Translations under genes and position numbers: made by a program
NCBI GenBank assembly: GCA_949290705.1
Contig: CASESI010000014.1
Span: forward strand, 37,802 to 101,801
Reading direction: 5' to 3'
DNA: 64,000 bases
Source of the DNA: an uncultured Holosporaceae bacterium
GTDB taxonomy: Bacteria > Pseudomonadota > Alphaproteobacteria > UBA3830 > CASESI01
Shown: piece by piece, positions 54,079 to 62,559 of the stretch
How positions within the stretch are numbered: position 1 is the first letter of the stretch
Layout of the letters: each line of letters begins with the position of its first letter
Notes under the pieces: generated by a model
The model's input: the letters and a program-made list of their open reading frames with translations, nothing else
Told to the model about the DNA's origin: nothing
The model's database searches: none

Positions 54079-56769
54079 ATGCCAAACTTTACAACATCAT
54101 CAACAACAACGACTTTGATAAAATCCATGGAGGTCAACGCATCTAACCTTGGAAAAGCTTCTGCAAACGGTTCTGCTGAAGACTTAAACTTTTTCAAAAC
54201 CCTTGAAATGGGAAAAAATGTGATTTCCACGGGAATCAAATTAAACAGAATATTAAACGTTGCAAAACAGGGAACCCCTGAACACGTAGATAACGACCTT
54301 GCAATGATGATTGGGGATGGAGGATTTTTCGCTGTTACTGATACTTCTGACACGGATGATACATCCTTAAAATACACAAGATCAGGATATTTTCAATTCG
54401 ATAAAGATGGCAATTTGAAAAACTCTGAAGGATTGTATTTAAGAATTGCAAAACTCAATGGTGCAACTGATACGACAAATTTCATACAAAATAATATTGA
54501 CGCTGGAGATTTGGTCGCACTTAATAAAAATGACTTAACATCAAGTTTAAAAGAAACGTCAGAAATCAACCTTAATTTCACATTACCTTTACCTAAAATA
54601 GGCGATCCGATTGTTAAGAATGAATTTACAAAACAATTCTCTGCATTCGACAAAGTGGGACAAGCACACTCAATCAACTTATCGTTCCAGCGTGACCCTG
54701 AGAATAACAAAAAATGGAAAGTGTATTTACGTTCTAACGAAAATATCGAAATTAAAGACAATAAGAATAATATGGTTTTCGTGCAAGACAAGGAAAAACT
54801 TAATGATCCTTTGATGGATACAGCTGCCCCATTCGAAATAGAATTCGATAACGAAGGAAAATTATTAAAAGTCTCAAAATTAAACCAAGTCCCTGTTGAA
54901 AAAACAATCAACAAAACAGACGCAAAAGGTGAAGTATACTACCTTGCTGAAAATGGAAACTACTACACATCAATAACTTTGCCACAAAACACACAATTCA
55001 AACAAGCAACAGACGACGCTGGAAATCTTCTTTGGGAAGGTGCAGATGGAAACGGATATTTGAATGAAGCCGACGCAAAAGCATCTGGCACAACTTTGAA
55101 ATATGCCACAAATGAAGACAACAGCATACAAACAGAGCAGGTTTTAAACCAAGACGGCAAAGGCCTTTGGAAAGCTGACGACGGAAATACATATTCTGAA
55201 GATGCACTCCCTGTTGGAATTAATTTTTCTGCTCTAAAAGATGAAGGCGGAAACATATTGTATCACACAACAGATGGAGGTATCATGACCCTTGCTGATG
55301 CAAAAGACCAAGGGAAAACCATTGCGAATGCAACCAAAAATGTCAACGGCGCAGATGAAACTCTTTTCGTAAGCAAAGACGACCCAACAAAATATTACAC
55401 AAAAGATGAAGCTGTCGCTGAAAACATTGAACTCGCACAGGCATCAACCAAAGATGGAAAATTACTCTGGCAAGCAGATAATGGAAAAAGCTATATTGAT
55501 GAAGATGCAGCAAACGCTGACGGAGCTCACCTAATTCAATTACAAGATGGTAACAATGATCCTTTATTTGTCGCAGTGGATGGCACATACATTACCACAG
55601 CAGATGCCACTGCAAACGGCATAGAACTTTCACAAGCAACCAAAGGTGGCGAAAAGTTATGGCTCGCAACTGACGGTAACTACTACACCGAAACTGAAGC
55701 TGCCGCTGATCCCGCAATCATTTTTGAACAGGCAACAAAAGGTGGAGATAAATTATGGCTTGCAACCGATGGTAACCATTACACAGAAACAGAAGCTGCC
55801 GCTGATCCTGCCATCGTTTTTGAAAAAGCAATGAAAAACGGAGCTGAACTTTTTGAAGCAACAGATGGAAAAACTTACACCACTGCAGAAGCCGCTGCTA
55901 ACCCAGCTATCACGCTTAAAACTCAAACTGTCCAAAAGCAAGACCAAGATGGAAACTTACTTTGGGAAGCTGATGATGGTAACGCTTACAAAGATGATAC
56001 TGATGCAACTGCTGCTGGTACAACTTTGAAAAAAGATGGTTTGGGTGCAAACGTTCCAGCAACCGAACAAGTAAATGTTAATGCAAAAGTCCAAGCAAAT
56101 GTTATTGCGCCACAAAAAGCATTTGAAAAATCTTATGCTGCAGCCATGGCAACAGCAAAAGTTCCGTTAATGCAAAATGTGAAAATCCCTCACAAAATCG
56201 CCTCGACGGAAACCGTGAACACATTCGATTGGGAAGCCTCTACCATTATCGACGCATCGAACAAAGACAAAATCGTCAATGGCAAGACAGCCCTGACCTT
56301 CACATGGGCTGATGGAGGCGTCACAACATCCGACTTCTTTTTTGGAGAACCTTTGAAAAACAATAACACAAAAGGTTTATCAACAAAATCCTCATCATTC
56401 AGCGGAGAAATCGCGCAAAATGGAAATGCAATCGGGCAATTCCAATCGCTCAGCATCTCGAACACAGGCGTGATCACGGTTATTTATGACAACGGATTAA
56501 CAAGCGATTACGCAAAAATCCCAGTCGTGCAATTCAACGCACCAAACGCCCTAACCGCTATTTCTGACAACGCATACATCCAAACTCACGACAGCGGATC
56601 CCCTAGGTTAATGGATGGAAAAATCATCACCGGAGTCGTTGAAAAATCCTCAGTCGACCAGATCAGAAACATCATCGAGGCAAACAACACGCAGAAAACC
56701 GTCGGGTTCGTCATGAAAGCGTACGCAAAACAAAACGAAGTCGAGGACATGATCCTGAAAACACTATAA
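54079..56769 (+). CDS. flgE: flagellar hook protein FlgE, expanded (896 aa) by an internal tandem-repeat domain
   Basis: N-proximal DNDLAMMIGDGGFFAV...YTRSGYFQFDKDGNLKNSEGLYL and C-terminal ISNTGVITVIYDNGLTS...VQFNAPNALTAISDNAYIQT..SG...G.VEKSSVD match the FlgE core. The central 375 aa are repeats. Confidence 0.8.
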   Translation: MPNFTTSSTTTTLIKSMEVNASNLGKASANGSAEDLNFFKTLEMGKNVISTGIKLNRILNVAKQGTPEHVDNDLAMMIGDGGFFAVTDTSDTDDTSLKYTRSGYFQFDKDGNLKNSEGLYLRIAKLNGATDTTNFIQNNIDAGDLVALNKNDLTSSLKETSEINLNFTLPLPKIGDPIVKNEFTKQFSAFDKVGQAHSINLSFQRDPENNKKWKVYLRSNENIEIKDNKNNMVFVQDKEKLNDPLMDTAAPFEIEFDNEGKLLKVSKLNQVPVEKTINKTDAKGEVYYLAENGNYYTSITLPQNTQFKQATDDAGNLLWEGADGNGYLNEADAKASGTTLKYATNEDNSIQTEQVLNQDGKGLWKADDGNTYSEDALPVGINFSALKDEGGNILYHTTDGGIMTLADAKDQGKTIANATKNVNGADETLFVSKDDPTKYYTKDEAVAENIELAQASTKDGKLLWQADNGKSYIDEDAANADGAHLIQLQDGNNDPLFVAVDGTYITTADATANGIELSQATKGGEKLWLATDGNYYTETEAAADPAIIFEQATKGGDKLWLATDGNHYTETEAAADPAIVFEKAMKNGAELFEATDGKTYTTAEAAANPAITLKTQTVQKQDQDGNLLWEADDGNAYKDDTDATAAGTTLKKDGLGANVPATEQVNVNAKVQANVIAPQKAFEKSYAAAMATAKVPLMQNVKIPHKIASTETVNTFDWEASTIIDASNKDKIVNGKTALTFTWADGGVTTSDFFFGEPLKNNNTKGLSTKSSSFSGEIAQNGNAIGQFQSLSISNTGVITVIYDNGLTSDYAKIPVVQFNAPNALTAISDNAYIQTHDSGSPRLMDGKIITGVVEKSSVDQIRNIIEANNTQKTVGFVMKAYAKQNEVEDMILKTL
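54916..56040 (+). repeat. 11 tandem ~32-aa coding repeats inside flgE
   Basis: Recurring G..LW.A.DGN.Y....A.A.G..L..A unit. Three adjacent 96-nt copies at 55633-55920 are the most similar: QATKGGEKLWLATDGNYYTETEAAADPAIIFE, QATKGGDKLWLATDGNHYTETEAAADPAIVFE, KAMKNGAELFEATDGKTYTTAEAAANPAITLK. Confidence 0.85.
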
Positions 56770-56779
56770 TAATCCGGGG

Positions 56780-61815: not shown

Positions 61816-62559
61816 AAATCCTCCTTAAAAAAATAAGATTAATTTTTTCTAAAAAACAGACCACCCGAAGTGATCGAAAATGTCACGAAAACATTATCGT
61901 TTTCGAAATTCGTTATTGCGACGATACATGAATACTGATGATTATTTTTTTATTGTATCACAAAAGTTTTCAAATGTCAAGTACTTTTTTAAATTTTTTT
62001 AAGATTTTTTTAAAATTTGTGATGAAGCGAGGAATTCTGTGGGTTTGAGAATGATTTTCTGGATCGAGTATGTTTATAGAGGCTGGTGCGTAATTTTTAA
62101 AATTGTTCCTTAACCTCAAGCGCGGTTGTATGTAGACGTGAGGATGTTATATAGGTTGCGCCAAGATTTTATGGTGAGTACCAGAACCATGGAGAGGTGA
62201 AGTTGTATTGCTATACTCTTTCTAATAACGAGTGTAAAATCCGAAGTCGAAGGCAGAGGCAGATTTCTTTGGCGAAAAGCGAAGTTGTATAGAAATTCTA
62301 ATTCTCGTGCGACTGATCAGTTTTCGGGATTTGACACGAACGCGAAAGTGTAAAAACTTTCTCGTTCCATTAGTAAAACAATTGTAGTAAAGACCGCGTG
62401 GGGTGTTCCCGTGCCCTCTTTGCTACAAGGAGTGCCTGTATTATGCATTGAAAAATAAAAAATGTCAAATATTATTTGTTGCTGCAAGTTTGGTCATGAA
62501 TTTTGGTGCTGGTGTGCGCTGTAAAAACTTTCACCTCTATGCAAAATGTCAATAATTTT

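Follow-up and report, generated by a model that had tools for sequence, protein, structure and literature searches.

A silent-site composition step inside flgE of a Holosporales-like bacterium, probably a trace of homologous replacement

We studied a 64-kb window (the whole stretch of DNA introduced above) and, in particular, the segment of it that runs from the flagellar hook gene flgE through tRNA-Arg and sulP to lysS. Within flgE, the GC content of third codon positions (GC3) rises abruptly. This compositional step is real, beyond chance and reproducible. Independent assemblies reproduce it, two lineages share it, the GC3-rich DNA matches a GC-richer relative, and divergence between sister lineages is heterogeneous along the segment. 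On balance, we think that the segment was replaced by DNA of a GC-richer relative, and that exchange of sulP and lysS and turnover of a small cassette followed. The window is otherwise AT-rich; most 1-kb bins have 26-36% GC, against 42-45% in the GC-richer part, here called the block. Its nearest named LysS relatives are metagenome-assembled genomes (MAGs) labelled 'Holosporaceae bacterium', at ~58% identity. In a GTDB genome scan, the best among the matches listed was a rumen MAG (61% identical), and one related contig came from a gut metagenome. Hence, the window most likely derives from an uncultured, flagellated, Holosporales-like alphaproteobacterium of gut or rumen samples.

The position of the step was determined by a maximum-likelihood change-point scan of third codon positions. 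In flgE, the change point lies after codon 700 (nt 56,179), where GC3 rises from 0.30 to 0.55. The log-likelihood ratio (LLR) was 21.1 and the maximum across 300 permutations was 11.1 (p<0.004). The scan found no change point in any of four control genes. A sequence-only reading of this DNA had placed a codon usage step near nt 56,190, and the scan bears this out. Further along, GC3 is 0.557 in the C-terminal sulP fragment, 0.422 in the N-terminal sulP fragment and 0.472 in lysS. Within lysS, codons 16-435 (60,511-61,770) have a GC3 of 0.51 and codons 436-517 one of 0.33-0.34. The 46 other open reading frames (ORFs) of the window average 0.257 (standard deviation 0.039, range 0.19-0.37), and the block genes lie at z = 4-8 above them. 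Native genes do not commonly share the composition of the block; their highest value is 0.366. Total GC climbs earlier, at ~55.0 kb, because of amino-acid composition (codon positions 1 and 2) and not because of silent sites. Only GC3 steps at 56.18 kb. The break coincides with position 56,151, where DNA-level homology to distant relatives begins. Codon 700 of flgE is an abrupt discontinuity with its breakpoint inside conserved sequence, of the kind looked for in mosaic loci. Three other conserved genes of the window, accC, a GroEL-like ORF (30,747-32,351) and murC, have no comparable rise in GC3.

An alternative raised with the first description of the step was a chimeric contig. The window has 99.8-99.9% identity to contigs in four ENA assemblies, which come from different samples and were made with different assemblers. 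These contigs are contiguous over 50,261-64,000 or 50,261-62,672 and cross every junction. The four assemblies and several Logan assemblies encode LysS and FlgE proteins identical to those of the window. Logan contigs are 99.8-100% identical to the window. They break at the tRNA (56,812-56,841) and near 61,996, as might be expected of a chimera, yet one of them (L011) covers 44,079-56,841 at 100% identity and so crosses the flgE junction. A sister lineage has the same step. We refer to the window as lineage A and to this sister as lineage B (L014, L020, L021 and L022); the other relatives are lineages C (L017), D (L008) and E (L015, L016 and L018). In contigs L014 and L020, lineage B has 91.6% DNA identity to the window over 12.8 kb, a divergence of ~8%. 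Its flgE also steps after codon 700, from a GC3 of 0.28 to 0.50 (LLR 15.4). A chimeric or misassembled contig is vanishingly improbable. Misassembly does not explain the step, which gives no ground for splitting the contig.

The silent sites of the block have their own signature. In plus-strand terms, fourfold degenerate sites of the background hold A.41, C.11-.15, G.07-.11 and T.36-.38. Those of the block hold A.24-.38, C.30-.50, G.14-.20 and T.11-.17. The plus strand had been described as C-rich at silent sites, which is accurate; T falls from 0.37 in return. At twofold sites of the block, plus-strand pyrimidine sites move to C and purine sites are nearly static (0.19 in the flgE C-terminus, 0.20 in the background). 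The preferred codon ending depends on orientation, with C in flgE and G in sulP and lysS. The lysine codons of lysS, said to be mostly AAG, are evenly split (AAA 23, AAG 22), still far from the usage of accC (AAA 26, AAG 4).

GC3 could rise in conserved protein segments if codon usage were selected there for expression or accuracy. Consistent with this, the whole of flgE favours NNC at twofold pyrimidine sites in all lineages (0.49 over codons 1-700, 0.27 in the background), and the FlgE C-terminus has a slightly higher GC3 in lineages D and E too. However, the preferred ending flips with orientation, and the highest GC3 of all belongs to a pseudogene, sulP. These two observations largely refute codon-usage selection. 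In addition, accC and the GroEL-like ORF show no such rise despite high conservation or high expression. We regard this explanation as highly improbable.

Lineages D and E share the gene order accC ... flgE, tRNA-Arg, sulP, lysS with the window. One contig shows the whole order in D; for E, it is joined from two non-overlapping contigs. Hence, a homologous donor template exists. Lineage D has 36% GC, a flat GC3 of 0.22-0.34 and two additional genes between sulP and lysS. Lineage E has 41.6% GC and a GC3 of 0.38-0.50 in every gene. Compared with their orthologues in E, native genes of the window have a GC3 lower by 0.17-0.24, whereas block segments are higher by 0.03-0.08. The fourfold and twofold signature of the block matches that of sulP and the flgE C-terminus in E. 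For lysS, the values of GC3, third-position C and third-position G are.472,.157 and.315 in the window and.472,.160 and.311 in E. Lineage E, with both synteny and matching composition, represents a plausible donor pool. The strand asymmetry itself, a plus strand rich in C and A, is clade-wide in this region, D included. The idea that strand skew is peculiar to the block fails on this point, since its polarity equals that of the window background and the relatives show strong skew region-wide.

Synonymous divergence (dS, Nei-Gojobori; binomial p values) was calculated between the window and lineage B. Nine native flanking genes or segments have a dS of 0.22-0.39, with a pooled proportion of synonymous differences of 0.249. 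Codons 701-896 of flgE equal the flanks (0.39). Hence, the flgE tract is old and would predate the split of A and B. By comparison, dS is 0.16 in lysS (p=4e-6) and 0.025 and 0.05 in the two fragments of sulP (p=1.6e-25), despite the pseudogene status of sulP in A. Identity between A and B in 100-nt windows of lysS alternates between 93-95% and 98-100%. Hence, the segment may have been exchanged between A and B, or imported again from a common source, after the split. Judged by these divergences, sulP and lysS appear to have a more recent history of their own. A mutator or selection does not yield such a pattern. A history different from that of the flanks is seen in sulP and lysS between A and B; it is not seen in flgE 701-896, nor in topology or depth against D, E and the LysS outgroups.

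The match to lineage E could have another cause. The block may be a relic of an ancestral E-like composition, in a genome that drifted towards AT while this stretch lagged or was restored. Composition shifts fast in the clade, the block signature equals that of E, and the block proteins are placed phylogenetically like native ones. Against this, uniform mutation pressure leaves neither a sharp step inside one gene nor an 8-fold range of dS. Synonymous sites are also near saturation against D and E, so nothing was simply retained, and restoration would itself be recombination, which returns us to replacement. We consider a relic quite unlikely. As a separate observation, the co-occurring relatives D (L008) and E (L015) have AccC proteins 95.5% identical, yet they stand ~6 GC points and 0.16 GC3 apart (AccC GC3 0.29 in D, 0.455 in E). 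Judged from these sequences, the clade changes its base composition very rapidly.

A local strand-asymmetric mutational process, driven by replication or single-stranded exposure, would convert plus-strand T to C and minus-strand A to G. The change in the block is indeed almost purely plus-strand T to C in either gene orientation, and GC skew changes sign near 61,900. However, the cassette and spacers within the block are unaffected, there is no cluster of DnaA boxes, and the same asymmetry is present in every gene examined on the D and E contigs, so it is not local. A mutator would also raise divergence between A and B, and the dS observed is low. Such a process has little chance of being the cause.

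The block is not the continuous unit, 56,190-62,450, that was first described. The step and the coverage from flgE to lysS stand; continuity and the right end at 62,450 do not. The right end is the start of lysS (~61,770-61,815), and from 61,900 to 62,450 GC skew is positive, opposite in sign to the block. Between these ends, the block is broken by AT-rich ORFans at 56,922-58,437 (GC3 0.30 and 0.35), absent from the sequence-only reading. It is broken again by the spacer between sulP and lysS, which was rightly called AT-rich (GC 0.20); the equivalent spacers of relatives are likewise AT-rich (0.18-0.26). The last ~80 codons of lysS, with a GC3 of 0.33, may be a further interruption, at a marginal change point (p~0.1). 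With the cassette set aside, the GC3-rich parts form one ~4-kb stretch made of the flgE 3' end, the tRNA, sulP and lysS. In lineage E, an ORFan adjoining lysS has a GC3 of 0.32. Hence, an E-like donor would account for AT-rich ORFans and spacers inside the block.

The alternation of GC3-rich and AT-rich DNA bears on another explanation, GC-biased gene conversion (gBGC) in situ. Here, a local recombination hot spot would have raised GC3 through repeated exchange among co-occurring lineages at conserved segments, with no GC-rich donor. We hold this to be possible but unlikely. The locus does recombine, with a dS of 0.03-0.16 against 0.22-0.39 in the flanks and a mosaic lysS. The GC3-rich tracts coincide with conserved, recombinable segments, and the non-homologous ORFans and spacers are AT-rich. 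Polarised changes have no excess of GC to AT, as if composition were maintained, and the flgE tract is still GC3-rich after a dS of 0.39. In relatives too, lysS and sulP rank high in GC3 for their neighbourhood. Recombination is reported to correlate positively with GC3 across bacteria (Lassalle et al. 2015, PLoS Genet, PMC4450053), which also counts for gBGC. On the other side, the enrichment is one-sided, from plus-strand T to C with almost no A to G, and gBGC alone is strand-symmetric. The conserved genes accC, GroEL-like ORF and murC are unaffected, and the flgE tract has a high GC3 with no sign of recent exchange. Effects reported for bacterial gBGC are far smaller than the rise of +0.25-0.30 in GC3 seen here. 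The exact match to the signature of lineage E would be a coincidence. In its fullest form, this explanation makes the block a standing 'GC island', kept in situ by GC-biased conversion at an inter-lineage hot spot on a strand-asymmetric mutational background, with a GC3 of ~0.5 over a dS of at least 0.3 without decay. That picture we offer tentatively, as a doubtful one. If gBGC were the cause, the locus would offer a small natural system in which to test GC-biased conversion in bacteria.

Replacement by homologous DNA of a higher-GC relative, as first suggested, is supported by the discordant dS between A and B and by the compositional match to lineage E. It is not supported in its original form of one uniform segment, and neither a donor nor incongruent trees were found. 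We infer that foreign DNA brought the high GC3, what kind of donor supplied it and in which order the events occurred. The flgE 3' end, tRNA-Arg, sulP and lysS, with the cassette set aside, would be an ancestrally contiguous, syntenic stretch. In the ancestor of A and B, this stretch would have been replaced by homologous recombination with a related, GC-richer, Holosporales-like bacterium. The left crossover would lie at the start of the conserved FlgE C-terminal domain (nt ~56,179) and the right end at or near the start of lysS. Later, sulP and parts of lysS would have been exchanged again between A and B, or imported again from a common source. The ORFan cassette beside the tRNA would have been gained, lost or swapped, also later.

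Phylogeny was expected to separate the two halves of flgE and to set LysS apart. Checked by pairwise distances, the flgE halves and LysS are instead congruent with native genes against D and E, in a test that would miss a donor whose branch lies on the same side of the tree as the window. Protein identities group the window and B against D and E for AccC, the protein at the flgD position, FlgE-N, FlgE-C and SulP alike. Synonymous sites are near saturation against D and E; fourfold identity in the block is 0.01-0.12 above the expectation from composition, which at this saturation is no extra signal. Among the matches listed in the GTDB genome scan, there was no donor. Testing accB as a second import led to its rejection, as just the conserved biotinyl domain reaches 83% identity.

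Several observations weigh against replacement. The distance from the window to D or E, divided by the distance between D and E, is 2.3 for AccC, 2.1 for FlgE-N, 2.05 for FlgE-C and 2.46 for SulP-C. LysS 16-435 is sister to the LysS of D (83%), and eleven outgroups are as distant from the one as from the other (0.618 vs 0.618). In no 100-nt window of the block does a lineage outside A and B (C, D or E) exceed 85-86% DNA identity. Outside A and B, the best LysS match has 90% identity and the next 79%. Protein searches with LysS, FlgE and SulP gave only lineages A-E and distant Holosporaceae, with no donor (the SulP search missed known relatives), and two JGI metagenome scans, uninformative in themselves, gave no donor match. 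The flgE tract keeps a GC3 of 0.50-0.55 despite a dS of 0.39. By a simple two-state decay estimate, its GC3 when the lineages split would have been ~0.6-0.67, which no sampled relative reaches. Decay towards AT is also lacking among polarised changes. Single-nucleotide differences within the lineage, polarised by B, are few and split 8 to 8 between GC to AT and AT to GC. Differences between A and B, polarised by the distant outgroup C, are 19 and 23, respectively, or 6 and 15 under a strict rule. The saturated outgroups D and E give mixed counts. No GC to AT excess, as amelioration would leave, appears in these few data with saturated outgroups. Lastly, the analysis covers only 64 kb of the genome.

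The AT-rich cassette next to the tRNA has a history of its own kind. A perfect 27-nt direct repeat, at 56,895-56,921 and 58,438-58,464, brackets 1.5 kb of DNA. In lineage B, contig L022 has an empty site, where a single 27-nt copy is all that separates the tRNA flank from the sulP 3' end, and the cassette of contig L021 differs in content. Lineages D and E lack a cassette, and tRNA-Arg is at the same position in relatives L008 and L015. No integrase or mobility gene was found among the listed ORFs of 56.7-64 kb (20-63 aa and longer; larger ones compared with NCBIfam). The site is a small locus, hypervariable both within and between lineages, without a mobility gene. We rejected the idea that the whole block is a tRNA-linked genomic island, because the block genes are syntenic in D and E and there is no integrase. 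Island traits (the 27-nt repeats and the empty site) are confined to the cassette.

In sulP, the earlier finding of a pseudogene with G-ending codons is correct (GC3 0.42-0.56). The window has two lesions, a 1-nt insertion near 59,516 and a TGG>TGA change at 59,609-59,611. The gene is intact in lineage B (558 aa) and lineage D (559 aa). The TGG>TGA nonsense codon is limited to the window and one other assembly. Hence, decay of sulP is ongoing.

Features of the segment are collected in the table below. The hook protein FlgE is unusually long (896 aa), and its central region, with internal repeats, is highly variable among lineages. Positions 55,632-55,911 of the gene hold diverged, tandem-like repeats of ~96 nt (32 aa, 'ATKGG(E/D)KLWLATDGN(Y/H)YTETEAAADPAI...'). 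Elsewhere in the window, a giant ORF of 3,119 aa (2,267-11,626, minus strand) has the lowest GC3, 0.19.

Beyond lysS, GC skew flips near 61,900 from about -0.2/-0.35 to +0.2/+0.45, and the cumulative skew of the window has its minimum there. A replication origin near 62 kb was considered and rejected; there is no DnaA-box cluster, and gene orientation also switches at ~61,900. The adjoining DNA at 62,020-62,500 is free of ORFs and has a GC of 0.39-0.41 amid AT-rich DNA, with strongly positive skew. Folding of its plus strand is a little more stable than that of shuffled sequence (z=-2.1) and includes a clean hairpin at ~62,384-62,426. Several Logan contigs, some from each lineage, stop at 61,984-62,012. 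A search of the window, and of 61.8-62.7 kb, against Rfam matched the tRNA alone. The region could be an unrecognised structured RNA or repeat. Further on, a 142-nt repeat (97% identical) is present at 62,559-62,700 and 63,576-63,717. Each copy covers the DNA upstream of a paralogous ORFan gene and the start of its signal peptide (MFFNRGNTMKKILLLSALFGGF...). A third copy, 96.8% identical, lies just past the window end in contigs L001-L003.

Table 1. Features of the flgE-lysS segment and its flank (window coordinates)
Feature	Position	Strand	Basis or remark
fliK-like ORF, Flg_hook domain	51,781-53,259	+	NCBIfam
Putative flgD, 262 aa	53,275-54,063	+	Assigned by position; without family match
flgE, 896 aa	54,079-56,769	+	NCBIfam FlgE family matches
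flgE codons 1-700, AT-rich native silent sites, GC3 0.30	54,079-56,178	+	GC3 profile 0.15-0.42
flgE codons 701-896, conserved C-terminal domain, GC3 0.55, third-position C 0.45	56,179-56,769	+	First GC3-rich tract
tRNA-Arg, anticodon TCT	56,780-56,856	-	ARAGORN; Rfam 67.4 bits
27-nt direct repeat, left copy	56,895-56,921		Perfect repeat
AT-rich ORFan cassette	56,922-58,437		Two ORFans, no NCBIfam family
ORFan, 286 aa, GC3 0.30	56,964-57,824	+	No NCBIfam match
ORFan, 188 aa, GC3 0.35	57,832-58,398	-	No NCBIfam match
27-nt direct repeat, right copy; overlaps last codons and stop of sulP	58,438-58,464		Perfect repeat
sulP (DauA/SulP family) pseudogene, GC3 0.42-0.56, G-ending codons	58,453-60,130	-	1-nt insertion and TGG>TGA
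sulP-lysS spacer, AT-rich, GC 0.20	60,131-60,261		Composition
lysS, class I lysyl-tRNA synthetase	60,262-61,815	-	NCBIfam NF001968, 770 bits

If replacement is the right explanation, uncultured, flagellated Holosporales-like bacteria of gut or rumen swap core genes across 10 GC points by homologous recombination. Among the DNA exchanged would be an aminoacyl-tRNA synthetase gene and a portion of the hook gene. This would bear on the real clonality of such host-associated lineages.

The locus can be compared with several known systems. In the concept of Lawrence and Ochman, acquired DNA of atypical composition is said to ameliorate towards that of its host. Like such DNA, the block departs from its host in third-position composition and resembles a related genome. 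Unlike it, the block consists of core, syntenic genes (lysS, flgE) that would have been replaced and not added, and decay from GC to AT is not detected. With gBGC in bacteria (Lassalle et al. 2015), the segment shares a higher GC3 together with evidence of recombination. It differs in a much larger magnitude, in its limitation to the pyrimidines of one strand and in conserved neighbours that are unaffected. The cassette resembles tRNA-adjacent islets with direct repeats, since it lies beside tRNA-Arg, has a perfect 27-nt repeat and has an empty site in another strain. Unlike them, it has no integrase or mobility gene and lies 5' of the tRNA. This likeness is limited to the AT-rich insert; the GC-rich block is syntenic in relatives.

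Mosaic penA and pbp alleles of Neisseria and Streptococcus arise by interspecies homologous recombination, and their import tracts are clustered or interrupted, in naturally recombining bacteria. Differences from those loci are that no donor allele of the block was found, and that its foreignness is compositional (GC3 and strand signature) with no phylogenetic jump. The host, too, is an uncultured, AT-rich, Holosporales-like bacterium of gut or rumen and not a naturally competent pathogen. As in those loci, an intact gene contains the breakpoint, which falls where a conserved stretch begins, and gene order is kept. Foreign- and native-looking segments alternate within the block, and divergence from the sister lineage is locally discordant. 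Replacement would make the event a further example of a well-known kind.

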